Shown in pieces: positions 6,564 through 53,554 of a stretch of 64,000 nt of DNA. The stretch is from positions 1 to 64,000 of IMG/VR virus record IMGVR_UViG_3300028025_003409. One strand, 5' to 3'. Every line of letters starts with the position of its first letter. Position 1 is the first letter of the stretch. This DNA is from a virus. The position numbers and the translations under genes were made by a program. The notes below the pieces were generated by a model, which saw only the letters and a program-made list of their open reading frames with translations, had not been told where the DNA came from and made no database searches.

Positions 6564-7057
6564 TAAATTGTCCCCTCATATATTGTACCATTAAGTCGTT
6601 CTCCAGAAATCAAAATCTGCACATCTAGTTGTTCGTCTGGCTCAAGATTTACTACCTCTATCACAAGATCCCCATCAGCGTTTATATATACAGTTTTTCC
6701 ACCAGGACCAGTTCCTACTGCAGGCAAAGACTTTTCAATCTTAATAGGAAAATTCTTAAATATCGTAACTGATGTATCCTGTAGGTTTAGAATGTTTTGT
6801 GGATTGTATTGTAGGTAAAGGCTACTTATGTTTTTAATTGGTTGGTATGAAATTGTTTGACCAGAGATTAAATCATTTCTAGATAAGGTAATTAGTTCAT
6901 GTCCCCCGATGTCTTCAAATATTAAATCTATCATTAACTGTTCAGGGATAACATCATCCTTAAAAATAAATAAGTCTGGGGTTGCCACCTTGACTGCTGG
7001 ATACGCTGTTGAAGTACTGTTATTTGATGGTTGTGGAGAAGTTGCTTCTGTTGACAT
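6563..7057 (-). CDS. minor tail protein
   Basis: Translationally coupled within the tail operon. Confidence 0.55.
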   Translation of the reverse strand: MSTEATSPQPSNNSTSTAYPAVKVATPDLFIFKDDVIPEQLMIDLIFEDIGGHELITLSRNDLISGQTISYQPIKNISSLYLQYNPQNILNLQDTSVTIFKNFPIKIEKSLPAVGTGPGGKTVYINADGDLVIEVVNLEPDEQLDVQILISGERLNGTIYEGTI

Positions 7058-11394: not shown

Positions 11395-12050
11395 TATACT
11401 TCTTCCAAAGAAAGAGATACATTCCAGAAATCATGCTTCTGTCCTCTTTTTGCAATTGTATAGTCAAACTTTGAAATATATACTTCTACAATTTCATTGT
11501 ATTGATTTAGGTGTCCATAGGCTGCATTATCACTACCAAAATTATTATACTTGTCGTAGGCTAAGAACATCCAGAATGATCCAGTATGGTTTTCATACCA
11601 GTCAAGAAGTTCTCCTCCGCCTGCCCCGCCATCCACGGTGTACTGCTGCGGTGGTGCTGATGGGGTCCCTGATGGCCCTATAAGCGTACTTTTCCCTGTA
11701 CTGGTGTTAAAGTCTGGCCTCAATGCAAAAGCCCTTGATGGCAGTTCGTCCCATGAAAAATCAAAGTTCATTTTATCAGCAATATGGTATGAACGCATAT
11801 GCCCATTAATCATTCTTTCTCTTTTTTCTATTCGGTTTGGGGTAACCTTAATCTCAGATCTATTGTGGTCTGAAAGAATTAAAAATTCATCTAATATCGA
11901 TGGGTCAATTGTAGACCCTGGGTCTTGACCAATTTCAAAACCATTCGGAACATAAAGACCATTAACAAGAGTGCCAGGATTATTAGAGAATAGAACAGCC
12001 TGTGGACGATTATACTTTCGTCTTCCTGTCATGTATGCTGAAGTAGCCAT
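11394..12050 (-). CDS. distal tail protein-like
   Basis: Directly after the tape measure; RMINGHMRSY and C-terminal WNVSLSLEEV. Confidence 0.65.
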   Translation of the reverse strand: MATSAYMTGRRKYNRPQAVLFSNNPGTLVNGLYVPNGFEIGQDPGSTIDPSILDEFLILSDHNRSEIKVTPNRIEKRERMINGHMRSYHIADKMNFDFSWDELPSRAFALRPDFNTSTGKSTLIGPSGTPSAPPQQYTVDGGAGGGELLDWYENHTGSFWMFLAYDKYNNFGSDNAAYGHLNQYNEIVEVYISKFDYTIAKRGQKHDFWNVSLSLEEV

Positions 12051-34858: not shown

Positions 34859-36892
34859 CTACTTGTTTATTTTTATTTCACAGTAGTCTGTTGTGCAGTA
34901 TGCTTCGCCCTGAGCCTCAAGATTATCTACACCGTCGTAAATGGCAGCAAAATCAATGTGCTTTAACTTACCAATATATGACTCATATTGCTCTTCAGTG
35001 ATCTGAGTATATGGCTGTTGTGGATATGTGTGATTTCCCATTGGTAGGAATGAGACTGCCTTTAGTTGCCCCTCGTACATGTGAAGTGCAGGAACAACAT
35101 GCTTTGACTCTGTTTCCTTGTCAAATGAAAGTGTTACAGAAACACCATTATCAGACCAGTACTTCTGAGCAGTTGCAGCAAGTGCAATCTTTTCAAACAA
35201 TGTAACATCCTTTTCAGATCTTGGATGGCCTGACTTGATTGGGAAATATACAACTGATGTGTTTGCTGATACCACATCGTCTTCAATTGTGTACCCTGCT
35301 GCTTTGAACAAATGCATCATTGGATCTGTATTTCCAAATCGAACTGCACGAAGGAAGAAGTTTCCTCCAGGTCCCCAGTGAACTCCAGGAGTTGCACCAG
35401 ACAAGATTGAAACTGATCCTGATGGCTTAACTGTTGTTACACGAATTGATTCACGAACACATAGCCACTCAGAGTACTGGTGGTCATAGTGACGAATCTT
35501 GTTATACCCTTCATCCATCCACTCACGAACTACTGGCAAACCCTTTTGATCTGCAAAAGATGCAATACCAGTAAGTGATGTACCAATACGACGGTTGCGT
35601 TGCATGATACCGTTTGTTTGTGGCCAGTGTGTTGGAACAAGTGTTACAGTCTTTCCATAAAGGTATGCAAACTTAAGGGTACGCAGGAAGTCCTCCTTAG
35701 ATTCATGACGATTCAAGTGCACTTCTACAAGTGTGCATAATTCGTATGATTCCAATGGCTGCTCCGCACATGGGTTGAATCCCATCACACGATAATCCTT
35801 ACCGTCTGGCGCATCCTTTAGTCGTCCATAATTACGAGCAACATCAAGCCAGATAAAACCTGGTTCTCCGTTTTCTGTAATTAAATCTACATAGTCTTCG
35901 TACCTTGTTCCTACTTCTGCTGAAATAGAATTATTAGACATCCAAGCCCAACCTGGATTCTCTGGATCAAATGAGTTACGCTCTGGGAACATCTCTGAGT
36001 TCTTTAGATTCATAAATGTTTCATCCCCTGCATTACCCAAAGCAAGAGTCGCTGATCGTCTTACGTTGCCTGATACTACGCAGGTACCAATAAGGTTTAC
36101 AAGGTCTACGATAGCACGAGAATCTAGTGTTTCTCCGCCTCTGGAGCCGATTACACGGTCTATCTGGTCGTGTAACTTAATAAGAGGTGCAGGTCCTGAA
36201 GCAACGCCTCCAAAGCCCTTGATAGGGGCTCCAAGAGGTCTAATTAAATCGTAGTTAAACTTCTGAATACTCTGGTTTGCTCTCAAGTAAGAATTAATTA
36301 AAAGTCGTACTGACTCTACCCAGCCTTCACGAGTGTCTGGAATTTCGAACACCTGTTCTGGTTCTGTAGGGGTATAGATTGAGAAATTCTTATCCTGTCC
36401 CACTGTATCAAACCCTACACCAATGCCAAGCATTAATGCATCCATCACCCAAGCAAAAAGGGCTCCTGGATCATTTTTGTCAAGGTCCTTTGTTGAAACC
36501 ATTGCACAGTTTTGTAGTGCTGCTGAGTTCTTCTTCTCCATGGTCATAGGGGTTCCAAATGCCCACATGCCTCGACCTGGTGGTGTCCACTTCAATTCAA
36601 ACATTCTTTGGAATGCTTCTTGTGCTGACTTCTGAGCCTTGTAGTCATTCCATGGCAAACGGTTTTCTTTAGCATGATTCTTTTGAACTGAATACATACC
36701 CTCGATTACACGACGACAAACTTCGTGCCACCTTTCCTTAGTTCCATCTTCCTTCATACGGGAATATGTTCGAATAAAAGTAATTTCTCCAAGTGAGTTT
36801 TCTGCTGCATCCTTAAACCCAAATGGGCTTTCTTGGCTCTTGTACTTTTCTACGAAGTCCTCTGGAAGTTTAAAACTAAAGAAATCTGACAT
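34859..36892 (-). CDS. nrdJ: class II (adenosylcobalamin-dependent) ribonucleotide reductase
   Basis: PPGRG, NCAM, GNVRRSA, NPCAEQPL, TTVKPSG and C-terminal CTTDYC. Confidence 0.92.
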   Translation of the reverse strand: MSDFFSFKLPEDFVEKYKSQESPFGFKDAAENSLGEITFIRTYSRMKEDGTKERWHEVCRRVIEGMYSVQKNHAKENRLPWNDYKAQKSAQEAFQRMFELKWTPPGRGMWAFGTPMTMEKKNSAALQNCAMVSTKDLDKNDPGALFAWVMDALMLGIGVGFDTVGQDKNFSIYTPTEPEQVFEIPDTREGWVESVRLLINSYLRANQSIQKFNYDLIRPLGAPIKGFGGVASGPAPLIKLHDQIDRVIGSRGGETLDSRAIVDLVNLIGTCVVSGNVRRSATLALGNAGDETFMNLKNSEMFPERNSFDPENPGWAWMSNNSISAEVGTRYEDYVDLITENGEPGFIWLDVARNYGRLKDAPDGKDYRVMGFNPCAEQPLESYELCTLVEVHLNRHESKEDFLRTLKFAYLYGKTVTLVPTHWPQTNGIMQRNRRIGTSLTGIASFADQKGLPVVREWMDEGYNKIRHYDHQYSEWLCVRESIRVTTVKPSGSVSILSGATPGVHWGPGGNFFLRAVRFGNTDPMMHLFKAAGYTIEDDVVSANTSVVYFPIKSGHPRSEKDVTLFEKIALAATAQKYWSDNGVSVTLSFDKETESKHVVPALHMYEGQLKAVSFLPMGNHTYPQQPYTQITEEQYESYIGKLKHIDFAAIYDGVDNLEAQGEAYCTTDYCEIKINK

Positions 36893-37005: not shown

Positions 37006-37740
37006 TTACTTAAAAACTTTTTTTTGCCAGAATTTTAGTCTATATCCATTCTGAAACATTGACCTAACAACTCTTCTTTGTAGATTGGTTTTTTCTGGAT
37101 CAAACTCTTTGTCAATTTCCATTTCCCACTCATCACGCCTAAAAGGAAATACTTGTGCTAATGGAGTTCCTTGTTTAATTATGCCTTTAAAGTTTTTCTG
37201 TATAAAAAATGATAGATGACCATCGGACCAAAACTTATCAGTATCAATAATTGCTTCAACTGCTCTGAGTGGCGAAGGTGGTTGATGAATTGGTTGCATA
37301 AATAAAGTACTAAAGCCTTCTGGAGTGCTGACCATCCATGTTGGATGAATTCTTAATATCTGATTACAGTAAAGATTTTGATCTAATGGCAAATGAGAAA
37401 CTTGTTCTGTTGAGTGATGAGCAATTAATTCTGCTTTAAATCTTTGCATTTCTGCTGGAAGTTGAACATCAAATCTTCCTTCTGTGGTATCAATATATAT
37501 ATCTACAGGAACCTTTAGCATATATCCCATAGACATGGAGTCAAAGAAAGCCTGACACTTTTTTACTGTAAGTCTAAAACTACCATTTTCTGGAATTTCT
37601 GGATTTGGGCCAGTAATACTTGGTTGATGTCTATACCAGTCTGGAACATTTTTAGTTCCTGGTTCTGGCAAAGGAAACACATCTACTAGATGAGGGTATG
37701 CCTGAAGAAACTTAATTTTATTAAATGGTATTTTTTTCAT
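37006..37740 (-). CDS. hypothetical protein (dUTPase-like beta-fold family seen in aquatic phages)
   Basis: PDWY..TVKKC..DSMSMGY..TPEGFSTLF..IIKQGTPLAQVFPFRR; leaderless promoter. Confidence 0.55.
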   Translation of the reverse strand: MKKIPFNKIKFLQAYPHLVDVFPLPEPGTKNVPDWYRHQPSITGPNPEIPENGSFRLTVKKCQAFFDSMSMGYMLKVPVDIYIDTTEGRFDVQLPAEMQRFKAELIAHHSTEQVSHLPLDQNLYCNQILRIHPTWMVSTPEGFSTLFMQPIHQPPSPLRAVEAIIDTDKFWSDGHLSFFIQKNFKGIIKQGTPLAQVFPFRRDEWEMEIDKEFDPEKTNLQRRVVRSMFQNGYRLKFWQKKVFK

Positions 37741-37779
37741 AATACAAGTATATCACTAATGGATAGTTCTTGCAAAATA

Positions 37780-39147
37780 TTATACCTTGGAGTTGTGGAC
37801 TACCATGTTACCAGCGATAATAGTATCGACAGGGAATGCATTAAACTTGAATACATTTCTTGTTTCTTCGATATATTCTACGCTTGTTACAGGTGTTGCT
37901 GTCATGCCAAATTCTTCTGCTTCAAAGATAAAGTCACTTGTCAATACCTTTTCTGCCTCAAGGAACATATGAGTATTGTCTCTCTTAATAAGAACCTTTT
38001 CTCCTTCAGTAAATCTCTTGCCCTTGTCACCGTTAAAGAATAGTGTTTTTTCTTTAACAGATGGCTCGATAGCGATAATTTCTGAGTTAACTCTTGAGAC
38101 TTGTTCAAGAACTGCTGGGTAAATTGTTGATGCTGATGGATCAACTGATTCATCTAGCAATCCATCCCAACTGATAGACCAGATTTTTTCTCCAACAACA
38201 ATGTCTTTTGCTGCCTTAAACTCTATTGAATTATCTTCACCAATAACTTGAATCAGTGTGTCTTCATCAATACAATATCTCAGTGGTACGAATGAGTAAG
38301 GTCCTGGTGTAAATGAAAATGTTGGTGTGAATGAATATGTTGGTGTAAAAGAATATGGTGTAAAAGAATAAGGTGTAAATGAATATGTTGGTGTAAATGA
38401 ATACGGTACAAATGAATATGGCACGAATGAGTAAGGTACGAATGAATATACTGGTGTAAATGAATAGGGTACGAATGAATAAGGTGTAAATGAGAATGGT
38501 ACAAATGAAAACGGTGTAAATGAGAATGTTGTTACTGATGCAGATGGAGAAGAAACTGCAGAGTTACCATTAGCATTTGTTGCATAAACTGTATATGTTT
38601 GTGCTGTTCCGCCTTCTTGTGATACTGAAACAGATGTTCCTGCTTGTGTTGCACCCTTTCCATCTGAAGATGCCCAAGTATAAGAAGTAATTGCAGATCC
38701 ACCATTTGCTGGTGCAGTCCAAGATACAGAGTCTGTTGTTGATCCCGCTACGTTAGCACCAGCAGAAGGTGTTGGGGATGATACTGACGGAGCAGCAGGC
38801 GCTGCAGGAACTGTTGTTACAGTCACAGAAGCAGAGGCAGTAGATACAGGAGATATGCCTGCAGCATTTGTTGCCCGAACTGTAAATGTTGGTGTTGCTT
38901 CTGATGCAATGCCAGTCACAATAATTGGAGAGGATGCTCCAGTTGCTGTCTGTCCTGTGCTTGCTGTTACTGTATAAGATGTGGCAGCAGGCGATAGTGC
39001 TGGTAAGGCAAATGCTACAGAAACTGCACCATTATTAAAAGCCCGTCCTGTTCCTACGTTTGTTCCAGTAACACCTGTTGGTGCTAATGGCTCCAAAAAG
39101 TCATTTGACGCTTGAGACTTCTTACCTATCTTCTTACCTGCTGCCAT
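37780..39147 (-). CDS. FnIII-domain protein with 15 (Y/F)SF(T/V)P repeats and a C-terminal Hint domain
   Basis: TFTVRATNAAG and VSWTAPANGGSAITSY FnIII motifs; repeats at 38284-38526; Hint CIDEDTLI...VVHN-SKV. Confidence 0.8.
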   Translation of the reverse strand: MAAGKKIGKKSQASNDFLEPLAPTGVTGTNVGTGRAFNNGAVSVAFALPALSPAATSYTVTASTGQTATGASSPIIVTGIASEATPTFTVRATNAAGISPVSTASASVTVTTVPAAPAAPSVSSPTPSAGANVAGSTTDSVSWTAPANGGSAITSYTWASSDGKGATQAGTSVSVSQEGGTAQTYTVYATNANGNSAVSSPSASVTTFSFTPFSFVPFSFTPYSFVPYSFTPVYSFVPYSFVPYSFVPYSFTPTYSFTPYSFTPYSFTPTYSFTPTFSFTPGPYSFVPLRYCIDEDTLIQVIGEDNSIEFKAAKDIVVGEKIWSISWDGLLDESVDPSASTIYPAVLEQVSRVNSEIIAIEPSVKEKTLFFNGDKGKRFTEGEKVLIKRDNTHMFLEAEKVLTSDFIFEAEEFGMTATPVTSVEYIEETRNVFKFNAFPVDTIIAGNMVVHNSKV

Positions 39148-39179
39148 GTCTATCTCCTAATTTCTTATTGAATTTTGTA

Positions 39180-40691
39180 TTACGCTGTCAAGTCGCCGTA
39201 GACAACCCATGTATTTGCTGCTCTCTTAAAGAGAGTACAAGATGACCAGGTTGTACGAAGTTTCAAGCCAGGTGTTGCATTTACTGTGACTGTTCCTGAT
39301 ACTGGGGCGATTGTTACTTGTCCCGCTCCTGTTTGAAGAATGTCAATAGATGTTCCGATTGGGAAATCCAGTGTTGCATCTGTTGGGATTGTTAGTGTCA
39401 TTGCTGATGCTGAACCCATCTCAATTAAATCATCTCTTTCGGTTAGTGATGAAAGTGTGTATGATGCTGTCTTTTGTGAAATTGGTGTTAAAGAATCTAC
39501 CTTTAGTCCAAGGTTTGTTGTTACTGATGCTGCAAAGTTTGCGTCATCACCAAGTGCTGCAGCAAGTTCATCAAGGGTATTAAGTGCTGCTGGAGCACCA
39601 GTTAGAAGTGCGTTTACCTGTGATGTTGCATCTGCAATTGCTTCTGCCTTTGCTGTTGCGATTGCTGTAGACTGTGCTGTTGATACTGGCTTTGATGCAT
39701 CTGCTGTGTTATCAACATTTCCAAGACCAAGTGAAGTCTTTGTAACTGCTGCTACATCTGCTGTAGTTGCAAGTAGAGAAGTATCTGCAATTCCGTGAAC
39801 ATTTGTTGTTATTGCATTCTGTGTAGATATCTTTGTATCTGCTGCTAGTCCTGCTGCAGTGATTGCTGCTGTTTCTGCTGCATCTGCTGCATCATCTGCA
39901 TACGCTTTTGTTGCTAGAAGTGCTGTGTCAACAATTCCGTGAACATTTGTTGTATCATCATTATGTGTTGATACTAAACCACTTGCATATGACTGTGTTG
40001 CTAGAAGTGCTGTGTCTGCAATCCCATGTACATTTGTTGTGTCTGTGTTATGAGTATCTAGCATTGTTGTGGTAACTAGAAGACTTGTATCTTGAATTCC
40101 GTGAACACTTGTCGTGTCTGCACTATGTGTGTCTACTGCGTTATCAGAATATTGCTTAGTAGCAAGAAGTGATGTATCTGCAATGCCGTGAACGCCAGTA
40201 GTGTCACCTGTGTGACCATCTAAAACTGTCTGTGTTACCAAAAGGCTTGTATCTGCAATACCATGCACATCTGTTGTGTCTGAATTATGTGTTGAAATGT
40301 TTGCTGTGGTTGCAAGTAGTGAAGTATCTACAATCCCATGAACATTTGTTGTGTCTAGATTGTGTGTGTTAATTGCTGTTGTTGTAAAAGTGTTTGATTC
40401 GTCAACTGATGTATTAATTGACATTTCTATGGCTGTTCCAAAATTGGCGTCGTCGCCAATTGCTGCTGCCAATTCGTTTAAAGTATTAAGTAGTTCTGGA
40501 GCACCGTCTACAAGGGCAGCAATCTCAGATGCAGAAGCATAATATGTCAGAGAAGACCATGTGTTTACTCCGTCACCAATCTTAAACTTGTTTGTTCCGC
40601 TTTCAAAGCCAATTTCTCCTGCTGCTAGAATTGGGTTTGCAGTAGTCCACTGCTGTGCAGTTCCTCTGCGCTGTTGCATTCTTGTTGCCAT
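39180..40691 (-). CDS. tail fibre (Mtd/hyaluronidase-type N-terminus, 7 His repeats, C-terminal GDLTA domain)
   Basis: MQQRRGTAQQW..NPILAAGEIGFE; HxxDTTxVHGIxDTxLL repeats; APELLNTLNELAAA. Confidence 0.8.
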   Translation of the reverse strand: MATRMQQRRGTAQQWTTANPILAAGEIGFESGTNKFKIGDGVNTWSSLTYYASASEIAALVDGAPELLNTLNELAAAIGDDANFGTAIEMSINTSVDESNTFTTTAINTHNLDTTNVHGIVDTSLLATTANISTHNSDTTDVHGIADTSLLVTQTVLDGHTGDTTGVHGIADTSLLATKQYSDNAVDTHSADTTSVHGIQDTSLLVTTTMLDTHNTDTTNVHGIADTALLATQSYASGLVSTHNDDTTNVHGIVDTALLATKAYADDAADAAETAAITAAGLAADTKISTQNAITTNVHGIADTSLLATTADVAAVTKTSLGLGNVDNTADASKPVSTAQSTAIATAKAEAIADATSQVNALLTGAPAALNTLDELAAALGDDANFAASVTTNLGLKVDSLTPISQKTASYTLSSLTERDDLIEMGSASAMTLTIPTDATLDFPIGTSIDILQTGAGQVTIAPVSGTVTVNATPGLKLRTTWSSCTLFKRAANTWVVYGDLTA

Positions 40692-40745
40692 ATTTTATTT
40701 CTCCTTATGGGTGCTGCCCATTTATCTTATTATAACATCAATTTT

Positions 40746-41195
40746 TTAATTGAAATTATCTACTACACTACCGCCATCAAATACAACTGTCCAAACTGAT
40801 GTGTCTGGGCCACCTGCATCTAAACCTACACCCAATGGGCTGTTGAATGATCCACCTTCATAGAACTGAGATACAATGAAACCAGTTCCATCAATTGCGG
40901 TATCGTGAATGTGCTGTGGTAAATTATTTGTATCATCAATAGTTGCTTGGGTATACCAAGATCCATTGTAATAGAAATTAACTCTATTTGTTACGGTGTC
41001 TAACCACTGTGTTCCGTTTGTTGGTGAAGAGGGAGCAATTGAGTCAACAGTCATTGATCTTGAATCAACATACTCCTTAGTTGCTGCATGTGAGTTTGTT
41101 GTAGGTGTTCCTACTGTCACTGCATCTCCGAATGTACCGCCGTTAGTTACGACTAAGCCATTCTTGACCTTGAAGTCTTTATTCTCTGTTGTCAT
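40746..41195 (-). CDS. small fibre-associated protein
   Basis: FKVKNGLVV start shared with the 41226 ORF; AATKEYVD and APSSPTNGTQWLDT fibre motifs. Confidence 0.65.
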   Translation of the reverse strand: MTTENKDFKVKNGLVVTNGGTFGDAVTVGTPTTNSHAATKEYVDSRSMTVDSIAPSSPTNGTQWLDTVTNRVNFYYNGSWYTQATIDDTNNLPQHIHDTAIDGTGFIVSQFYEGGSFNSPLGVGLDAGGPDTSVWTVVFDGGSVVDNFN

Positions 41196-41225
41196 TTATT
41201 GCTCCCTTTTCCACACAAATTTTTA

Positions 41226-43589
41226 TTACTTAAGAAGTGTTCCAGTTACCTTGATTGTTGAATCATTTACTGGATCTACTCTTACTTCTACATTTGCACC
41301 AGATACTCGTGCTGTAATGCTTCCTCTTGTACCATTTGTTCCAACGATTGCATATTCTGTGATTGCAATGTTGTCTGATGAGTCTAGAGTAAGAAGTATT
41401 TCAGAAACTTCATTATCTGTTGCGTTGTCAATCTTAACCATTAGTTTTGCTGAACGATAGTCAGCCTTTGGCCATGAATATGCAGTTACTACAACTGATC
41501 CAAGTGATGAAGAAGTTGCTGCAATCTGCTTAGCCTCAGAGTTTACATTTATTTCTGTAAATGCTGTTGTTCCAGCAAGAACATCATCAAGTGCTTCTTG
41601 GGCTGTGGCCTCTGCTGCTGACTGGGCAGTTGATGCTGAACCTGCTGCATCGTATGATGCTGCGGTTGCTGATACTGCTGCTGCATTAAAGTCTGAGATA
41701 TCTGCTGCATCAAGACCAGTTACAGAGATTGTTGCCCCTGTAATGTCAATGTTTGATCCTGCAGTTAGTGCATCTTGCTTTCCTGCTGCAATACCCTGAA
41801 GTGAGTTAAGTGCATCTGGGTCATTGTCAAGTGCTGCTGCCAACTCCTGAAGTGTATTCAAAAGTTCTGGTGCTGAACCAACAAGGTTTCCAACTGCAGT
41901 ATCTGTGTAATCCTCTGCTGCTGAAATTGCCTCTGACTTTGCGGTTGCAATAGCAGAGTTACGATCTGTAACCTCTGTTGAGATTGCAGTTGAAAGTGCT
42001 CCTGCTGCAGTTGCTTCTGCTGCTGCTTGTGCAGCATTTGCCTTTGAAGTAGCATCTGCTGAGGCAGTTGCTTCTGCACCTGACTTAGCGTTATTAGCCT
42101 TAGTTGTGGCATCTGACGCTGCTGCTGCGACTGCATCTGAGTATGCTGTGTTTGCTGAACCTGCTGCATCGTAGTTGATTGCAAGGCCGTCTGCGTAGTC
42201 TTCTGCTGCTTCTTGTGCTGCTGCTGCTGCACCATACATATCGTATGCTGCTGATGTTGCATCAAGTGCTCTTTGGTTTGTGAAGTAAAGGTTTGAACCT
42301 TCTTCAATATCATCTGTATCAAGAAGGTTTATCTGATCCCCAATTGTTCCACCCACAGCATCAATTGCTCGCTGGTTAGTGAAGTATAGGTTTGTTCCTT
42401 CTTCAATGTCTGTTGTGCTTATGTCATTTACCGCAGATGTAATTGCAGAGTTTCTATCTGCTACTTCTTGAGTAATTGCTGCTCCGATTGCAGTGTTACG
42501 GTTTGTAACTTCTGTATCGATAGCAGTTGAAATTGCAGAGTTTCTATCTGCTACTTCTTGTGTAATCTTTCCATCTGTAGCAAGGTTTGATGCTGCTTCT
42601 GCTGCATTCGCCTTAGATGTCGCATCAAGGGCTGCGGTTGCTTCTGCTGCTGCTCGTGCAGCATTTGCCTTTGAAGTTGCATCTGCTGAGGCTGTTGCTT
42701 CGGCTGCAGTCTGTGCTGCTGAAGCGTATCCCTGTGCTGCTGTGTCAAGATCAGAAATTTCTGAGTCAACATATGATGTAGCAGCCTTTGTTCCAACAAG
42801 AGTTGTAAGGTTTGTAATTGTATCTGGTGCATCACCAAGTGCTTGTGCCAACTCATCAAGAGTATTTAGAAGTTCTGGTGCTCCATTAACAAGTGCTGAC
42901 ACTGCAGAGTCTGTATATCCTTCTGCTGCAGAGATTGCTTCTGCCTTTGCTGTAGAGATATCTCCAGTTACTGTTGTATAAAGTGTTGAGTTTGCATTTG
43001 ATGCAGTCAACTCTGCTGCTGCTTGGGCTGCATTTGCCTTTGAAGTAGCATCTGCTGAAGCGGTTGCTTCTGCTGCAGATTGTGCAGCATTTGCCTTTGA
43101 AGTAGCGTCTGCTGCTGCTGTAGTTATAGCATCTGCTTCTGCTTGATCAGCATAAGCCTTAAGTGAAAGATCGAGTAATGATACTTCATCGTCTGTGTAT
43201 GAGTTTGCTGAAGCCTCTGCTGCATCTGCTTTAGATGTTGCATCTGTTGCTGCTGCAGAAATTGCCTGAGACTTTGCTGTTGCAATGTCTGATGTTACTG
43301 TGGTGTACAAAGATGTATCTGCTGCTGTAGCAAAATCTTGTGCTGCAGTCTGTGCTGCTGCTGCTGCGCCTGATTCATCAAATACGCCTGACTTAATATT
43401 TAGTTCGCCAGCAATAACTTCCATCTGTGTTGCTTCAACAGATGTTACAAGTGTTTCTCCACCAATCAAATTAATAATATATTGATCTGATGTATCCTCT
43501 GTAAGTATTTGCTTTCCTGCTACTGTAGCGATTGATCCTTCAACTACCAGGCCATTTTTGACCTTAAAGTTTTTATTTACTGTTGCCAT
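41226..43589 (-). CDS. long Ala-rich tail fibre
   Basis: DATSKANAA coiled-coil repeats, DIEEGxNLYFTNQRA x2, APELLNTLxELA x2. Confidence 0.75.
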   Translation of the reverse strand: MATVNKNFKVKNGLVVEGSIATVAGKQILTEDTSDQYIINLIGGETLVTSVEATQMEVIAGELNIKSGVFDESGAAAAAQTAAQDFATAADTSLYTTVTSDIATAKSQAISAAATDATSKADAAEASANSYTDDEVSLLDLSLKAYADQAEADAITTAAADATSKANAAQSAAEATASADATSKANAAQAAAELTASNANSTLYTTVTGDISTAKAEAISAAEGYTDSAVSALVNGAPELLNTLDELAQALGDAPDTITNLTTLVGTKAATSYVDSEISDLDTAAQGYASAAQTAAEATASADATSKANAARAAAEATAALDATSKANAAEAASNLATDGKITQEVADRNSAISTAIDTEVTNRNTAIGAAITQEVADRNSAITSAVNDISTTDIEEGTNLYFTNQRAIDAVGGTIGDQINLLDTDDIEEGSNLYFTNQRALDATSAAYDMYGAAAAAQEAAEDYADGLAINYDAAGSANTAYSDAVAAAASDATTKANNAKSGAEATASADATSKANAAQAAAEATAAGALSTAISTEVTDRNSAIATAKSEAISAAEDYTDTAVGNLVGSAPELLNTLQELAAALDNDPDALNSLQGIAAGKQDALTAGSNIDITGATISVTGLDAADISDFNAAAVSATAASYDAAGSASTAQSAAEATAQEALDDVLAGTTAFTEINVNSEAKQIAATSSSLGSVVVTAYSWPKADYRSAKLMVKIDNATDNEVSEILLTLDSSDNIAITEYAIVGTNGTRGSITARVSGANVEVRVDPVNDSTIKVTGTLLK

Positions 43590-43602
43590 TTTTTATATCT
43601 CC

Positions 43603-44049
43603 TTAAGCCTTTAGTCCAATTCGTGCAAAACGAACTGTTATAGGTGTTAAACCGCCTACTGGAGTGACTGATAAAGCCACGGTATTTCCAGAGCGGGAGA
43701 CATTAATGGTGCCAATATTCCCATCAGTGTCGACTGTTCCGTATTCGGTTACATTTATGTTTGTACCGTCAACAAGAACAGTTAATTCTGTTGCATAAAA
43801 TTTATTATCGCCTTGCGATGTCTTTGATATTGAAACAATATACTTGACCATACGAAAAACCGTTGCATCGAAGTTGTCAACGACTGTAGTCATCTCAATT
43901 CCGTTTACTGTTGTTTCGTTATTACCTGCTGTACCCAAATCTGTTGCTTGGGATGACAGAGTGTCGATGAGATCTACGTAATCTTCTTGGGTAGGACGAT
44001 CACCAGTTTGAAACTTTAACTTAACATTCGGAATTGTGAGTTTGGCCAT
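43603..44049 (-). CDS. fibre-associated structural protein
   Basis: FQTGDRPTQEDYVDLIDTL; C-terminal domain (TEYGTV) similar to the end of the 41226 ORF (TEYAIV). Confidence 0.65.
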   Translation of the reverse strand: MAKLTIPNVKLKFQTGDRPTQEDYVDLIDTLSSQATDLGTAGNNETTVNGIEMTTVVDNFDATVFRMVKYIVSISKTSQGDNKFYATELTVLVDGTNINVTEYGTVDTDGNIGTINVSRSGNTVALSVTPVGGLTPITVRFARIGLKA

Positions 44050-44082
44050 GCTGTAATTATAACATGCTTTTTAATAGGATAA

Positions 44083-44307
44083 TTAGAGAATATAGTTGCT
44101 GTAGCCAATAACCTGAAGTGGAATTGCGGGGGTATTTCCTAAACCAATAGCCTGAATCTGAATGGCTGTAAACTTAACCCTAAAAGGAAGTATTTCAGTT
44201 ATTAAAGTATTTATTGCTATATCTTCTATCTTAACCAATGAGTATTCTATTGGAAAGATTCGCTCTGTTTTATTGTTTAGTTCATCAAGAATTAATGCTG
44301 TGGCCAT
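44083..44307 (-). CDS. hypothetical structural protein
   Basis: Coupled ORF in the fibre block. Confidence 0.55.
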   Translation of the reverse strand: MATALILDELNNKTERIFPIEYSLVKIEDIAINTLITEILPFRVKFTAIQIQAIGLGNTPAIPLQVIGYSNYIL

Positions 44308-44717
44308 TAATCTGTTACATCTTCAAGAATCTTCATGCTACCCTGGCAAACTGTCCATACTCTTGTTGGATCACTAACCTGGATATCAAAGATGTCTCCT
44401 GTCTGTAAAACATTAGATTCTTCTGCTGTAAGCCAAACCGTAAACTCTCCGACTAGGTCATCTTCATCTGCAACTGGATGCAGAGCCATAATTGTTGTAG
44501 CGTCATCTGTAATAACTCCAGGCTTTGATGTGGGTCTTTTAATTTTCATAGCAATGTCCCACTCAGATCCTTCGCCTTTTAGAACTAAAGGCTGCTTTGC
44601 ATCATCTGTTACATAAACTTTAAATCCAGACGTGTCTCCACGAACAACAGTCCAAATAACTGTAGGAGGTTTATTTCCTATGTCGTATGATGTTTGAGAT
44701 CCTCTTAAAGTTGCCAT
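44307..44717 (-). CDS. BppU-N-like baseplate protein
   Basis: WTVVRGDT...FDIQV...GSMKILEDVT; paralogue of the 49262 and 50436 ORFs. Confidence 0.6.
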   Translation of the reverse strand: MATLRGSQTSYDIGNKPPTVIWTVVRGDTSGFKVYVTDDAKQPLVLKGEGSEWDIAMKIKRPTSKPGVITDDATTIMALHPVADEDDLVGEFTVWLTAEESNVLQTGDIFDIQVSDPTRVWTVCQGSMKILEDVTD

Positions 44718-44735
44718 TGTTTTATTATATCACTA

Positions 44736-45257
44736 TTAAGACAAACCGTCTTTAAGTGCTCCCCATGTTCCGTTTCCTTTTGCCTCTACAATAATTACTC
44801 CTGTGTTTGATGCATGTGCAACAACTCCAACTGCCCCTGAGCCACCTGTAGGTCTAACATTTGTTAACCCACCAGATGTTCCAACATACAGCACATCACC
44901 ATTTTCAAATCCAGATGTATTTATATTTTCCATAACCCCTGCAACTACTGCAATCCCATCAGATCCGTTTGCTACTGGAGTTTTTAATAATCCCAATATT
45001 GGAGATTCGGTCAAAGGCAGTGCCTTTGCAATTGTAGTTTTTGTTGTATGACCAGTCGCATATACTGGTGTTCCTGCAGGTAAATTTTCTCCGCTATTAT
45101 TTAAAATTCCAAGTTGAAATTGAGATAATCCAAGTGGTGGCAAGATAACCATTAATCTATCTACAAGTGATTCAATATCCTCGTGTACATTTACTGGGTC
45201 ATTTGCAAGCGGGTATGGTAATTTAAATAACGCATCATTAGTATTTCCAGTAGCCAT
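44736..45257 (-). CDS. virion structural protein (capsid-cement/DUF2190-like)
   Basis: LPYP start; GTPVY...INTSGFENGDVLYV..GGLT. Confidence 0.5.
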   Translation of the reverse strand: MATGNTNDALFKLPYPLANDPVNVHEDIESLVDRLMVILPPLGLSQFQLGILNNSGENLPAGTPVYATGHTTKTTIAKALPLTESPILGLLKTPVANGSDGIAVVAGVMENINTSGFENGDVLYVGTSGGLTNVRPTGGSGAVGVVAHASNTGVIIVEAKGNGTWGALKDGLS

Positions 45258-45285
45258 AGTATATTTATTATACCACCTTCTAAAG

Positions 45286-45315
45286 TTGACTTTTGGTAAA
45301 ATTTTGTGTTATACT
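45286..45315 (+). promoter_or_regulatory. sigmaA-type promoter
   Basis: TTGACT-18nt-TATACT with TG extension. Confidence 0.75.
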
Positions 45316-45362
45316 AGGTGTAGACACCTACCAGGGTGTTATTGTTTTCTAAGGAGGAAACT

Positions 45363-45926
45363 ATGATTAAATTTATCGAAAGAAACAAAGAGATCATTAG
45401 CACACTCAGTATTGTATTGTTAGTAGCGATATCTTCTAATGCTGCTAATGCTGCTCCAGAACTAAATACGAAAAATAATCTTAGCCTTGAACAGGCTCAG
45501 ACATCGGAAACCGCCTCGAAAGAGGTTTTTTTGGTTTCTAAGACAAAAAAACTAGAGAGTTTTGAGAATAAGGTTTCTCTAACTGATTTAGAACTAAAAG
45601 AACTACTTTCGCTAGTAGGCTTCAAGGGCAAAGACCTTGTTGTTGCTTGGGCAGTGGCTAAGAAAGAGTCCAATGGGCGACCATTGGCTTTTAATGGCAA
45701 TCACAAGACTGGTGACTCATCTTATGGTATGTTCCAAATCAATATGATTGATACCCTTGGTCCTGATCGTAGAACCAAGTTTGATCTTGACTCTAACGCT
45801 GAACTATTCAATCCCGTCAAAAACGCAGAGATTGCATACTACATGACTAACGGTGGAGAAGATTGGTCCTCATGGAAAGGCATTACTCCAAGAACCAAAT
45901 CCTGGATGGCTAAATTTCCTAAGTAG
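45363..45926 (+). CDS. secreted lysozyme-like lytic transglycosylase
   Basis: AAGGAGG SD; signal peptide ending ANA; AKKESNG catalytic Glu, SYGMFQIN, LFNPVKN, WSSW. Confidence 0.8.
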   Translation: MIKFIERNKEIISTLSIVLLVAISSNAANAAPELNTKNNLSLEQAQTSETASKEVFLVSKTKKLESFENKVSLTDLELKELLSLVGFKGKDLVVAWAVAKKESNGRPLAFNGNHKTGDSSYGMFQINMIDTLGPDRRTKFDLDSNAELFNPVKNAEIAYYMTNGGEDWSSWKGITPRTKSWMAKFPK

Positions 45927-45938
45927 TTTATTAAAAGA

Positions 45939-45968
45939 TAGGGGGCCTTTATTGGCCCCTTATTTTTT
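45939..45968. terminator. bidirectional terminator
   Basis: GGGGCC/GGCCCC stem with flanking A/T runs between convergent genes. Confidence 0.75.
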
Positions 45969-46210
45969 TACCATTTTTTAATTGGACATTCTGCATACTT
46001 TAAGTGTGTCTTTAGTTTCATGAAGCAGCCACACTGTTTACATGTTGCTGTTAATTTTATTAATTCTGGACAAGATTTGCAAATATCTAGTCTTTCAAAA
46101 GCAATGTCTTCAGATACTCTGTTTCCAGGCTTTATGATGTCCCAAGGCTTAACTTCTCCCATATTTTTTCTAAATCTGTCCCATATTTTTTCATCTGAGT
46201 TTTCTTCCAT
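45968..46210 (-). CDS. small Cys-rich protein
   Basis: RLDICKSC...CKQCGCFMKLK..L..AECPIKKW; leaderless promoter. Confidence 0.7.
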   Translation of the reverse strand: MEENSDEKIWDRFRKNMGEVKPWDIIKPGNRVSEDIAFERLDICKSCPELIKLTATCKQCGCFMKLKTHLKYAECPIKKW

Positions 46211-46228
46211 ACTACAATTTTATCACAA

Positions 46229-47497
46229 CTAGACCTTAGAGTTGTGTACTACCATATTTCCAGCAATAATAGTGTCTACTGGGAAAGCGTTAAACTTAAA
46301 GACATTTCTTATTTCTTCAATATAGTCAAGTGAAGATACTGGAGTTGCTACCATTCCAGAATCTGTTGGCTCAAAAATAAAGTCATTTTCTGTCACTGTT
46401 TTTGCCTCAACAAATATATGTGAATCTAGGCGTTTAATAAGAACTTTTTCTTCTGGGGTAAATCTCTTTGTTTTATCACCATTAAAGTATAAGGTTGTAT
46501 CTTTTGTTGATGGGCTAATCTGTACAATTTCAGATTGAACCCTTTTAACATTTTTAAGATTTTCTGGGTAAATTGTTGATGCTCCAGGGTCTTGCAGATC
46601 ATCAAGTAGTCCATCCCAAGTGATAGACCAAATTTTATCTCCAAGGACAATATCTTTTGCTGCCTTAAACTCAACAGAGTTTTCATATCCAACAATCTGA
46701 ATAAGTGTATCTTCATCAATACATACTGTGAGTGGTACGAAGGAGTATGTTGGTGTAAAGGAGTAAGGAGTAAAAGTATAAGGAGTAAATGTATACGCAG
46801 GTGTTGGTGTGAATGTGTAAGTAGGTGCTGTTGGTGTAAAGGTATAGGCAGTTGGAGTAAATGTGTAAGCAGGTGTTGGAGTAAATGAATACGGAGTAAA
46901 TGAATAAACTGGACTACAAGTTGCTGCAGCAATTGGGGATGGGCCTTCTTCTGGACCTGGTGCACAATTAAAGTTGTTTCCAGGACCAAGTTCTCCCATT
47001 TGTGTAAGCAATTGCTGAACTTGTGAACAAGTCTTATTTGGCCAGAAGTAAGGACCAACCACTGATCCATCTGCACCAGATGCTGGGTTGGAACAGTGTG
47101 TGTACCATACACCAGTTGCGGCAACTGGAGTAAATGAGTATGGAGTAAATGAGTATGGAGTAAATGTATATGCGGTTGGAGTAAATGTATATGCGGTTGG
47201 AGTAAATGTGTATGCAGTTGGAGTAAAAGAATAAGGAGTAAAAGAATAAGGAGTAAAAGAAAAATTATAGTATGTATAAGAAACATTTGTTTCGTAGTCT
47301 ACAAGAGAATCAAATGATGGATTTTGAGATGCAATTTTTTGATTTAAAGAATCATCTGCCGTATCTGTTGAACCAGTCTCCAGTGGAACAAGTCCATTAC
47401 TAACAATTGATGATGAGGCAGTTGTTCTAGTCAAACCAGAAAGATTAGGTACTTTTACCATACCCTTTAAAGATGACCAAAAACCAAAATTTAGCAT
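46229..47497 (-). CDS. PASTA-like domain protein with 17 (Y/F)(S/T)F(T/V)P repeats and a C-terminal Hint domain
   Basis: VKVPNLSGLT...IASQNP PASTA-like; two repeat blocks around a 4-Cys insert; Hint CIDEDTLI...VVHN-SKV. Confidence 0.8.
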   Translation of the reverse strand: MLNFGFWSSLKGMVKVPNLSGLTRTTASSSIVSNGLVPLETGSTDTADDSLNQKIASQNPSFDSLVDYETNVSYTYYNFSFTPYSFTPYSFTPTAYTFTPTAYTFTPTAYTFTPYSFTPYSFTPVAATGVWYTHCSNPASGADGSVVGPYFWPNKTCSQVQQLLTQMGELGPGNNFNCAPGPEEGPSPIAAATCSPVYSFTPYSFTPTPAYTFTPTAYTFTPTAPTYTFTPTPAYTFTPYTFTPYSFTPTYSFVPLTVCIDEDTLIQIVGYENSVEFKAAKDIVLGDKIWSITWDGLLDDLQDPGASTIYPENLKNVKRVQSEIVQISPSTKDTTLYFNGDKTKRFTPEEKVLIKRLDSHIFVEAKTVTENDFIFEPTDSGMVATPVSSLDYIEEIRNVFKFNAFPVDTIIAGNMVVHNSKV

Positions 47498-47504
47498 CTT
47501 TAAC

Positions 47505-48137
47505 CTAAGCCGTCAGGTCACCAAGAAGTAGCCAGGTGTTAGTGTCAACTTTTGTAAGAACTGCACCAGAGTACCTAGAGGATATCTTTTTGTTTGAGTT
47601 TTTGCTGTTAATAATTACACCTGGTGTTGCACCTGCAAAAGAAACTGCCCCAGTTCCATACCGAATAAACTCAATTTTTTGCCCTATAGAAAAGGCTGCA
47701 ACACTGTTTAATGGAATGGTTATAACAATATCTGAAGAAGACTCTACAGAAATAGTTTTTCCTGAATCAGATTTTGCAACGGTATAGTCAGAAGTCTTTG
47801 TAACAAATGTTGCAGAATCGTTTACATATCTCCAAGCAGATCCAGAATAATACTGGACTTGGTCTATTGGTGTTCCATCATCTTCTTGTCTAACAAAACA
47901 AACTAAGCCTGCTGTTGGAGATGTTAAAACAGCGTCTCTTGCTGTTGGGTTTTGAAAATTATTAATTCCGCCCTTGGCTTTAATAACATTATTAAATGTA
48001 GTTGCTGCGGAGAATGTTTGCTCGGCTGACCAAGTATATTCTTGATTTGTATTTACTGATCCACCAATAGCGTACCAAGTATCGTCAGATTCGTTGTATA
48101 TATAAGCATTCTTTCCATCAGTATTAATTGTTGCCAT
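47505..48137 (-). CDS. fibre protein with C-terminal GDLTA domain
   Basis: C-terminal domain paralogous to the end of the 39180 ORF (F.IG..I....G.G.V...NTW...GDLTA). Confidence 0.7.
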   Translation of the reverse strand: MATINTDGKNAYIYNESDDTWYAIGGSVNTNQEYTWSAEQTFSAATTFNNVIKAKGGINNFQNPTARDAVLTSPTAGLVCFVRQEDDGTPIDQVQYYSGSAWRYVNDSATFVTKTSDYTVAKSDSGKTISVESSSDIVITIPLNSVAAFSIGQKIEFIRYGTGAVSFAGATPGVIINSKNSNKKISSRYSGAVLTKVDTNTWLLLGDLTA

Positions 48138-52177: not shown

Positions 52178-52947
52178 TGATTCAAGATATATTAGACACT
52201 ATCGAGTATTCAAAACAACTTATCATATCCCCCGATATGGATGGGTTTATGACGGCAAAATTATTAGAGCGTTTTAACGGTTCGAAAATAGTAGGTTCTT
52301 ATGATAAGAATCTTTTATGTCTCGCCGACGGGATCAACCCAGAGGAATGCTTGTTCGTCGATTGCGATATGAATAGGCAAGAGTATGTTTCTCTCGGAAA
52401 TCATATGCGCTTGCTTGAGGACAATATGTCGGTTGAATCATTTAATCCAAATGTGCACTTCGGCGTTTCGATATATAGCGACAAGTTTCCCTTCGCCACT
52501 GCGTTTTTAATTTCGTTCGCAACAGAGGCCCAAACCTCCGAAGAAGACCTTATCCGCATGGCTTTCGCTGATTCTACATTACGCAATATGGAAAAATATA
52601 GCGACAACATGCGAAATTGGTCTACACGGATGGATCATCCTGCAGTTAAGTACATAGTGGACAATTCGGACATTGCAAAAAGAAATGATGCACAAGCAAG
52701 GTTTGATTATGTAGACCAATCATTTACATCTAAAAGATACGGCAAGGCAAGATATCTGGATACCCTTAATAAGGCCCTAGAAGGCCAGGGGATGAAGTTT
52801 GAACCACTTACCAGGGGTAGCAAGTACATCTGCGACAAAGTTGGCAAAGAAACCGTTATGCGGTATAATAGAGATATCATATCTTACGCAGAGATCTTTA
52901 CAGGAGAATACTCTGTTACCTATGACCAAGAGACGGAATGGAAGTAA
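52177..52947 (+). CDS. DHH-like phosphoesterase (tentative)
   Basis: IISPDMDG and LFVDCD resemble DHH motifs I and II; no canonical DHH motif seen. Confidence 0.4.
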   Translation: MIQDILDTIEYSKQLIISPDMDGFMTAKLLERFNGSKIVGSYDKNLLCLADGINPEECLFVDCDMNRQEYVSLGNHMRLLEDNMSVESFNPNVHFGVSIYSDKFPFATAFLISFATEAQTSEEDLIRMAFADSTLRNMEKYSDNMRNWSTRMDHPAVKYIVDNSDIAKRNDAQARFDYVDQSFTSKRYGKARYLDTLNKALEGQGMKFEPLTRGSKYICDKVGKETVMRYNRDIISYAEIFTGEYSVTYDQETEWK

Positions 52948-52948
52948 T

Positions 52949-53554
52949 ATGTTTACATGGGGAAAACACCTTATCAGAGTTGTTCATAATTTTGCTACGC
53001 CAGATGAGTTGTCTATCCTAGATGACTACTTAAAGTCACTTCCAGATTTTCATACAAAATCAGTCTCATGGCTAGATTTTATTGAAGCCGAGCATTTGCC
53101 AGAGTATAAAATTGATGATCCAAACGTAGAAAAGGTTATGCGTGAATTAAATACACGAACTAACAAATACATAACAGAAGTCTATTTCCCCGAATCAGAG
53201 TTAAGTGTCATCAGAGATAATGGAAATAGAGAGTTGGAACTTGTTAGATGGAGTGCTATGTCACACCTTGCTCCTCATTCAGACTGGAGACTTGCAGATG
53301 GATCTCCTTATCCATTAACACTGCCACAATTTACAATTGGATCTCTTATATATATCAATAAAGACTATGCAGGCGGAGAGATTAACTTTCCAGATTATGA
53401 TTTTAAGTTAGATCCCCAACCTGGAGATTTAATTTTGTTTCCCTGCCAATATATGCATGAAGTTCTACAAGTACTTCCACTTAAAGGAAAAGAAAAAGCA
53501 AACAGATATACCATGCCAGTATTTTACTGGTTTGACTTAGAGGAAAAGGAATAA
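52949..53554 (+). CDS. 2OG-Fe(II) oxygenase, prolyl-4-hydroxylase-like
   Basis: HSD...YINKDYAGGEINF...PQPGDLILFP...HEV...R. Confidence 0.85.
   Translation: MFTWGKHLIRVVHNFATPDELSILDDYLKSLPDFHTKSVSWLDFIEAEHLPEYKIDDPNVEKVMRELNTRTNKYITEVYFPESELSVIRDNGNRELELVRWSAMSHLAPHSDWRLADGSPYPLTLPQFTIGSLIYINKDYAGGEINFPDYDFKLDPQPGDLILFPCQYMHEVLQVLPLKGKEKANRYTMPVFYWFDLEEKE

Follow-up and report, generated by a model that had tools for sequence, protein, structure and literature searches.

Two fiber-linked genes of an uncultured lake phage encode repeat proteins capped by a C-terminal Hint domain with predicted self-processing activity

An uncultured lake phage with a complete 109-kb genome carries two modules in which a tail fiber gene is followed by the gene of a repeat protein ending in a Hint domain. 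Judged from the sequences, the most likely action of this domain is to cleave itself from the repeat protein or to pass that protein to another molecule. The window analyzed here is a stretch of 64,000 nucleotides (positions 1 to 64,000 of IMG/VR record IMGVR_UViG_3300028025_003409), and all coordinates refer to it. A first-pass annotation of this DNA had described a three-gene order that occurs twice and had read it as an interchangeable, autoprocessed virion appendage; the observation was partly confirmed and the interpretation partly supported. All six open reading frames that it listed are present on the minus strand at the coordinates it gave, and the succession of fiber and repeat-Hint gene held in both modules, but the third genes (P5 and P6) proved unrelated to each other.

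The two upstream genes are, by homology, genes of phage tail fibers or minor tail proteins. Fiber 1 (39180..40691, minus strand, 503 aa) matched Pfam Mtd_N (E value of 2.6e-11) and many PHROG tail-fiber families. It has an Mtd_N-type N terminus (about 40566-40676), repeats of ~20 aa ("T..DTT.VHGI.DTSLLAT") and a C-terminal tip domain, FIBC (39183-39527). Fiber 2 (47505..48137, minus strand, 210 aa) matched PHROG tail families and ends in a divergent FIBC (47508-47852). The relationship between the two fiber ends had been noted before and is real, with about 100 aa in common at 33% identity (E value of 8e-12). FIBC is also ~50% identical to the C termini of Gordonia phage minor tail proteins and, by this likeness, is a genuine minor-tail-protein end in those phages; it carries an invariant Lys and an invariant Ser and gave no significant match among PDB sequences. 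Using IMG/VR loci for the distant gene neighborhoods, we found a FIBC-tipped fiber directly upstream of the Hint gene at 38 of 41 distinct loci, separated from it by 0 to 41 nt, and the coupling of fiber and Hint genes was tight across 43 distinct pairs; the proposed succession of fiber and repeat-Hint gene is thus conserved. A strict co-variation of leader type and fiber-tip subtype was rejected, since two loci (L086 and L103) combine a PASTA-type leader with a standard tip.

Repeat-Hint protein 1 (37780..39147, minus strand, 455 aa) consists of a conserved leader (MAAGKKIGKKSQASNDFLEP), an fn3-like region (about 38533-39090), a tract of 15 [YF]SF[TV]P units (38284-38532), the Hint domain (Cys292 to Asn452; 37792-38274) and the tail SKV (37783-37791). 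Repeat-Hint protein 2 (46229..47497, minus strand, 422 aa) has a PASTA-like N terminus (about 47288-47458), two repeat arrays (A, 47126-47269; B, 46748-46912) separated by a Cys-containing insert of about 70 aa, the Hint domain (Cys259 to Asn419; 46241-46723) and again the tail SKV (46232-46240). The two proteins are 54% identical over their full length (E value of 2e-107), and both contain the junction YSFVPL..CIDEDTLIQ described in the annotation. The [YF][ST]F[TV]P repeats are likewise genuine (15 and 17 units); 13 to 14 DNA versions of the unit encode 4 peptide versions, and the tract is uncharged and of a Tyr/Phe-Ser/Thr-Pro type. Each Hint domain spans 161 residues from Cys1 to His-Asn, followed by SKV and the stop codon, and the two are 72% identical. 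The close similarity that had been claimed for them extends over the last 172 residues (72%), and the final 26, RNVFKFNAFPVDTIIAGNMVVHNSKV, are the same in both. Since the codons for these 26 residues, in blocks F/G, differ at 13 of 78 nucleotides, all of the differences being synonymous, the identity is held by purifying selection, and gene conversion was ruled out as its source.

The labels FnIII and PASTA-like, given earlier to the two N termini, are weak in the window copies (no Pfam fn3 match in protein 1; a Pfam PASTA match in protein 2 with an E value of 0.0016, under the cut-off) but are backed by relatives, as 13 of 62 family members have fn3 and 10 have PASTA. One Hint module stands behind differing N-terminal domains (fn3, PASTA, Ig), and the term interchangeable is therefore fair.

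According to its predicted structure, the C-terminal domain is a true Hint fold. The AlphaFold model had a pLDDT of 95.2, and the top ~50 PDB matches in Foldseek were all inteins, BIL domains or Hedgehog HhC domains (E values of ~1e-6, the best being 4.6e-7), which confirms the initial assignment. This identity emerged only via the family profile and the fold, because direct scans of both proteins against Pfam, PHROG and NCBIfam gave no Hint match and single-sequence phmmer against the PDB found nothing; neither protein matched any PHROG family. The family profile matched inteins and the 2lwy BIL domain (E values of ~1e-8), and 42 of 62 family members matched Pfam Intein_splicing. Over 100 clusters from uncultured phages make up the family, which has a layout of leader, binding domain, low-complexity Pro/aromatic linker and, at the extreme C terminus, a Hint domain starting with Cys1. 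Throughout the family as sampled, this domain (161 aa, without an endonuclease domain) is terminal, with a tail of 1 to 5 residues in 112 of 126 members. Megablast and tblastn searches with the region and protein 1 against 50,697 GenBank phages gave no match, and a contig scan of cellular genomes found no close relative.

Across the family, position 1 is Cys in 168 of 175 sequences and Ser in 6 (Cys292 and Cys259 in the window copies), and block B has Ser or Thr in 207 of 210. The block-B His position, set by alignment to THDH of the KlbA intein, is limited to Glu (81), Gln (68) and His (60). In the window copies, block B reads FTEGE and FTPEE, that is, Thr is present, Glu occupies the His site, and neither copy has Thr-x-x-His. 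Their blocks F/G are VFKFNAFPVDTIIAGNMVVHN, ending in His-Asn; His and Asn were each found in ~175 of ~187 sequences aligned at those columns, and in a separate count, the terminal His-Asn was absent from 45 of 171 distinct members. Strong purifying selection acts on Cys1, on the Thr/Ser of block B, on blocks F/G and on His-Asn. At related loci, members without His-Asn retain Cys1 or Ser1 in 22 of 24 cases, which argues for the N-terminal acyl shift as the common chemistry. The +1 residue is Ser or Thr in 20 of 126 members and never Cys; in the window copies, it is Ser, and the "extein" is SKV only. Given the rarity of this nucleophile and the frequent loss of His-Asn (the 45 members above), family conservation counts against the canonical splicing that the first-pass annotation had entertained. 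In 120 of 126 members, one of the two residues that follow His-Asn (+1 or +2) is Lys or Arg, and many members end in HNK.

A conserved third "partner" gene was not supported, as the positions of P5 and P6 are not kept in distant relatives. P5 (37006..37740, minus strand, 244 aa; DUF6065/phrog_7084) lies between Hint gene 1 and a class II RNR gene (34859-36892) and has a predicted dUTPase/dCTP-deaminase-like fold; its best fold matches were all dUTPases or dCTP deaminases (Z up to 10.4), with cupins at only Z ~2.5, and this fold makes a 2OG oxygenase improbable. Given also that it adjoins the RNR gene and is not homologous to P6, P5 is probably not a dedicated partner of repeat-Hint protein 1. 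P6 (45968..46210, minus strand, 80 aa; DUF6171, Cys rich) is the co-transcribed last gene of module 2, kept only in close relatives. A strong bidirectional terminator-like hairpin (45933..45968) closes this unit of fiber 2, Hint 2 and P6, and an SLT lysozyme gene (45336-45926, plus strand) is convergent to it. In relatives, arrays of 2OG-oxygenase genes follow the Hint gene, while in the source genome, oxygenase genes are dispersed, among them one at 52799-53554 of the window and others at genome positions 83044-83721, 84545-85090 and 88012-88683.

We favor, with somewhat more confidence than doubt, a module made of a fiber and a Hint-capped accessory protein or adhesin, in which self-processing of the BIL/Hog type frees the repeat as the C-terminal end. 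The repeat-Hint protein, encoded a few bases downstream of the fiber, would be associated with it, its fn3-like or PASTA-like domain would be of a carbohydrate- or cell-wall-binding type, and the Hint domain would be a domesticated autoprocessing module. A thioester would arise when Cys1 attacks the preceding peptide bond (Tyr291-Cys292 in protein 1, Val258-Cys259 in protein 2); once it was resolved, most simply by hydrolysis, an 18-kDa Hint "cap" would be released, and the mature protein would end in a free aromatic-proline repeat. This end might serve as a spacer or as a sticky tail, and the 2OG oxygenases of the phage may hydroxylate it. We infer the cleavage itself, the virion location of the product and the role of the repeat; synteny is what suggests that the repeat-Hint proteins associate with the virion. 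Because the block-B His normally activates the N-terminal scissile bond in inteins, with Glu at this site the reaction may run slowly, only under certain conditions or in another way. As for precedents, BIL domains without a +1 nucleophile mostly yield cleaved products, and HhC uses the first acyl shift only (PMC7664689).

Simple hydrolysis does not explain the near-universal Lys or Arg after His-Asn. This residue fits a different outcome, unlikely in our judgment, in which the epsilon-amine of a lysine, and not water, resolves the thioester. If the acceptor were a Lys in the protein's own tail, Asn cyclization would follow, leaving the repeat protein isopeptide linked to a tiny peptide, while capture by the invariant FIBC Lys would covalently fix the accessory protein to the fiber. 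It is doubtful that the Hint domain is a single-use, ATP-free ligase whose thioester is caught by either lysine, covalently welding an exchangeable binding module with a hydroxylatable aromatic-proline tail to the fiber. The invariance of the FIBC Lys and Ser and the close coupling of fiber and Hint genes agree with such a transfer, as does the fact that Tetrahymena BIL2 (6y75) is one of the top matches in structure; this domain builds a Lys-epsilon isopeptide bond to its N-extein, which it conjugates to substrates (PMC8616854, section 2.4). Tail ligation is nevertheless not universal, as the 45 of 171 members without His-Asn and the Lys tail still keep Cys1. Splicing of the BIL-A type, without a side-chain nucleophile, is very improbable. 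Here, Asn452 would cyclize and the alpha-amine of Ser-Lys-Val would attack the thioester, producing ...PLRY-SKV. Both window copies have His-Asn-Ser, and PMC7664689, with the references cited there, describes BIL domains that are convertible to efficient splicers and some that ligate without nucleophilic side chains; the scarcity of Ser/Thr at +1, the many HNK ends and the members without His-Asn all oppose it, and adding 1 to 5 residues has no obvious value.

Nor do we think it likely that the Hint domain of these copies has lost its catalytic activity, or is latent, and is retained in the mature protein as a structural, docking or oligomerization module at the tip. The Glu that replaces the block-B His in both copies, and the failure of Pfam Hint models to detect either protein, could be read in this way, but the block-B His is also missing in some active inteins, the site is confined to His, Gln or Glu without drift, and the catalytic positions are under strong purifying selection. 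It is also quite improbable that these are nonvirion proteins, made late for cell-wall binding or a lysis-related role or as precursors that release modified aromatic-Pro peptides. PASTA domains bind peptidoglycan, the SLT lysozyme gene lies 40 nt past module 2, modifying-enzyme arrays follow the Hint gene in relatives, and no PHROG structural family was matched. Against this, the Hint genes are coupled to fiber genes in the 43 distinct pairs, fn3 and Ig domains are typical features of the structural proteins of phages, and the homologs in Phage NCTB lie among collagen-like tail fibers and are themselves annotated as tail proteins.

The phage Hint caps would be a variant within known BIL/Hog-type autoprocessing. 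With BIL type A domains (Amitai et al. 2003, cited by PMC7664689), such as the Clostridium thermocellum BIL (2lwy), they share the Hint fold, Cys1, the C-terminal His-Asn without a conserved +1 nucleophile, a location in surface-type proteins that vary, and cleavage, not splicing, as the expected outcome. The combination by which type A is recognized (terminal His-Asn, no +1 nucleophile, variable nonessential proteins) was found; the 2lwy profile match (E value of 3.7e-8; Foldseek TM of 0.66/0.82) was no better than those to archaeal inteins. Unlike type A domains, the phage ones are always at the extreme C terminus with only 1 to 5 residues after them, are phage encoded beside fiber genes and always follow a low-complexity Pro/aromatic tract; Glu or Gln frequently replaces their block-B His, and a subgroup is devoid of His-Asn. 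Hedgehog/Hog proteins (1at0, 6tyy; Foldseek E values of 3 to 4e-6, TM of 0.67 to 0.79) have the same order of cargo, linker and C-terminal Hint, and the N-terminal acyl shift suffices in them. However, the phage proteins have no sterol/adduct recognition region, with only 3 residues after Asn, and no Gly-Cys-Phe junction, and a lipid or other acceptor would be hypothetical. In the structural neighbor BUBL BIL2 of Tetrahymena (6y75/6tmm; PMC8616854), the thioester is resolved on a lysine side chain, and the phage family similarly keeps a basic residue right after His-Asn. BIL2, in contrast, has a ubiquitin-like cargo and a real C-terminal domain bearing the acceptor Lys, where the phage tail has 1 to 5 residues and lysine transfer would be hypothetical. 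Set against canonical (class 1) inteins, the family as sampled has neither a conserved +1 residue on a functional C-extein nor an insertion inside a conserved host protein.

Within phages, the Peptidase S74 intramolecular chaperones of tail spikes and fibers are by analogy the nearest functional counterpart, being C-terminal self-cleaving modules on low-complexity fiber proteins, according to PMC7824862. The two have unrelated folds and chemistry (S74 uses a Ser-Lys dyad, Hint a predicted Cys thioester), and no S74 match was found for the repeat-Hint proteins in Pfam or PHROG. Three proteins of Phage NCTB (LT598654.1; BN7874_132, _135 and _136) belong to the same Hint family (HMM E value of 1e-36, TM of 0.79 to 0.85) and likewise have a Hint domain at the extreme C terminus, a low-complexity linker ahead of it and adjoining tail-fiber genes. 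They differ in their poly-Gly linker, the lack of a FIBC fiber partner and their jumbo phage background. Their database product name is "phage tail protein, contains intein domain," beyond which our literature search found no account of them. On Hint or BIL domains in phage tail proteins, the literature search returned nothing beyond classical inteins and Hint domains that release toxins, and no paper describing Hint-based maturation of phage fibers was found.

Selfish inteins, toxin-releasing peptidases and Hedgehog lipidation are the known settings of Hint domains, and a large phage-specific family would add to this list. Many 2OG oxygenases of phages are orphans, for which the aromatic-proline repeat is a candidate substrate, and the Hint cap, if active as predicted, would be a naturally occurring, compact self-cleaving tag. 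This genome's two paralogous modules, with differing binding domains and the same cap, offer a clean comparison pair. If the proposed self-processing is true, it would represent a new route by which the receptor-binding machinery of phages is matured or conjugated, and lysine capture, if it occurs, would bring Hedgehog/BIL2-style conjugation into virion assembly.

Both modules are encoded on the minus strand within a cluster of fibre genes, which lies upstream of the genes for RNR, portal, protease and major capsid protein. The phage genome, from IMG/VR, is complete at 109,057 bp and has terminal repeats; its first 64 kb form the window. In module 1, a fibre of 503 aa (39180-40691) is followed after 32 nt by the repeat-Hint protein P0001 (37780-39147, 455 aa) and by a third gene, P5 (37006-37740, 244 aa). 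Module 2 comprises a 210-aa fibre (47505-48137), P0002 after a 7-nt gap (46229-47497, 422 aa) and, as its last gene, P6 (45968-46210, 80 aa), followed by a strong bidirectional terminator (45933-45968). This terminator is shared with a convergent SLT-type lytic transglycosylase gene (45336-45926, plus strand) located inside the otherwise minus-strand fibre cluster. A single minus-strand ORF of 3183 aa (12050-21601), very large for a 109-kb phage, separates the head genes from the gene of a 1445-aa minor tail protein (7057-11394) and is a candidate tape measure or giant structural protein.

The paralogous fibre ends described in the first-pass annotation correspond to a C-terminal tip domain of ca. 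100 aa (FIBC; 33% identity, E 8e-12). The domain ends in G-D-L-x-A, and a Gly, a Ser, a Lys and a Trp within it are invariant. In Gordonia phages, annotated minor tail proteins have C-termini ca. 50% identical to FIBC, which supports a role in the tail. The shaft of the module 1 fibre (39800-40400, minus strand) contains about eight repeats of ca. 20 aa with the form T..DTT.VHGI.DTSLLAT. Several hundred records of Synechococcus and cyanophages were matched by this fibre in tblastn, probably through the shaft repeats or the Mtd_N end rather than the tip.

P0001 and P0002 have, as first noted, unrelated N-termini and very similar Hint ends: they can be aligned from the repeats onward (E 2e-107), with 72% identity and no gaps over the final 172 residues, the last 26 being identical. 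The codons for these 26 residues differ at 13 synonymous positions in 78 nt, indicating purifying selection on both C-termini; the same differences rule out recent gene conversion as the source of the identity. The [YF][ST]F[TV]P repeats also proved real, with 15 units in P0001 and 17 in P0002. Given that their four peptide versions are encoded by 13 to 14 DNA versions, the repeat peptide itself is under selection. The tract of P0001 (83 residues) is uncharged and consists only of F, P, S, T, Y and V plus one G, and the number of units varies among close relatives (15-18 and 18-23). In P0002, the tract is split into two arrays by a nonrepetitive insert of ca. 70 residues with four Cys (residues ca. 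125-195; 46913-47125, minus strand), which has no equivalent in P0001.

The Hint domain was missed when both proteins were scanned against Pfam, PHROGs and NCBIfam. An exhaustive HMMER search recovered 107 representative clusters carrying it, nearly always at the extreme C-terminus, and the family profile matched solved inteins and the Clostridium thermocellum bacterial intein-like (BIL) domain (E ~1e-8). Among single members, Pfam Intein_splicing was detected in 42 of 62 and PT-HINT in 10. The AlphaFold model built from the family alignment had a pLDDT of 95.2, and its top Foldseek PDB matches were all intein, BIL or Hedgehog autoprocessing domains (E 5e-7 to 1e-5). The assignment as Hint is solid. 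The blocks are canonical: C-[IVL]-x-x-D-T (A), [ST]-x-x-[H/Q/E]-P-h-L (B) and V-Y-x-F-x-x-E-P-x-D-x-x-I-A-G-x-x-V-H-N (F/G). Across 175-210 sequences, the first residue is Cys 168 times and Ser 6 times, and block B retains Thr/Ser in 207/210, its "His" site being E in 81, Q in 68 and H in 60 (Glu in both P0001 and P0002). Eight residues ahead of block B, an Asn within F-N-x-D (Asn372 in P0001) is nearly invariant (205/208); its column is not among the classical intein block residues.

In public databases, copies of the family are called "hypothetical protein", and any precomputed domains are limited to fn3 or PASTA. The nearest BFVD/UniProt entries (TM 0.83-0.93) all come from uncultured Caudovirales and were named automatically ("Fibronectin type III," "PASTA_pknB domain containing," "Hint domain containing protein"). 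In GenBank, the jumbo phage NCTB (LT598654.1: 96419-103678; locus L123) has three members among collagen-like tail fibres, labelled "putative phage tail protein, contains intein domain"; their linker is poly-Gly, and a FIBC partner is absent. They measure 1304, 506 and 153 aa, the smallest being essentially a stand-alone Hint domain without the N-terminal Cys region. They are not discussed in the papers examined that cite this phage, and literature searches on Hint/BIL domains in phages yielded only classical inteins (terminase and RNR genes) and toxin-releasing Hint domains.

Across about 120 IMG/VR loci, the fibre/repeat-Hint pair held up while the proposed third partner did not. Of the 41 distinct Hint genes whose upstream flank was covered, 38 have a FIBC fibre directly upstream on the same strand; the gap is 0-41 nt in the 43 distinct pairs. 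P5 and P6 are unrelated proteins. P6 (DUF6171) follows the Hint gene in close relatives only. P5 (DUF6065, phrog_7084; model pLDDT 84.7) folds like a dUTPase or dCTP deaminase (Z up to 10.4; the top 22 rows are all of this type) and in the window adjoins the class II RNR gene. Duplication is recurrent, several relatives having two Hint genes, arranged either in tandem or in separate fibre-Hint modules (L105:6923-8797, L107:2-1217, L057, L088, L104, L112 and L114), one often much longer (700-1020 aa). In most relatives, four to six genes (215-250 aa each) are arrayed behind the Hint gene and encode several 2OG-Fe(II) oxygenases (PF13640), proteins of the P5 family, a cupin resembling Asp/Asn hydroxylases and a sulfotransferase; a 2OG oxygenase occurs within 5 kb downstream in 34/43 loci. 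The genome studied here has four such oxygenase genes, dispersed (52799-53554, plus strand, in the window; the rest at genome positions 83044-88683, minus strand), the latter near a second P5 paralogue (86647-87387, minus) and another array-type gene (85961-86617, minus). Hydroxylation of the repeats by these enzymes is an attractive possibility, based on synteny in one phage lineage and weakest in the window genome.

In nearly every member, a low-complexity tract precedes Cys1 and always abuts the predicted cleavage junction (X|Cys1), with Pro at -4 nearly invariant. Its units are diverse (YSFTP, FGFSP, FFAPPGFFSPP, FFPPYFPYFP, PVAAPTAP, IIATP or poly-Gly). Two N-terminal types recur, a strongly conserved K-x-G-x-K-S-x-A-x-N-D-F-L-E-P leader followed by fn3 and a PASTA-type start (P-[DNS]-L-S-G-L-T).

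As for the chemistry, 126 of 171 distinct members end in His-Asn plus a tail, of 1-5 residues in 112. Splicing, one of the outcomes first envisaged, is nonetheless unlikely, and its canonical form is not the function of the family, since the +1 residue is never Cys and is Ser or Thr in only 20 of the 126 (Ser 19, Thr 1; Lys in 51), and since 45 members lack the terminal His-Asn (ending in ...IVIS or ...LTIA), Cys1 or Ser1 being kept in 22 of the 24 seen among related loci. Together, these counts point to the N-terminal N-to-S acyl shift as the common step, with putative autoprocessing at X|Cys1 as the best-supported mechanism. Hedgehog HhC and BIL domains use this shift, the BIL output being mostly cleavage products (PMC7664689). 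Among phage domains, the closest functional counterpart is the self-cleaving S74 chaperone domain found on fibres and spikes (PMC7824862), although it is unrelated to Hint. Lys or Arg occupies +1 or +2 in 120/126 members, and lysine is a thioester acceptor in Tetrahymena BIL2 (PMC8616854, section 2.4), also a structural neighbour of the phage domain. The sequences are compatible with either water or another nucleophile as the acceptor; conjugation would be one candidate outcome.
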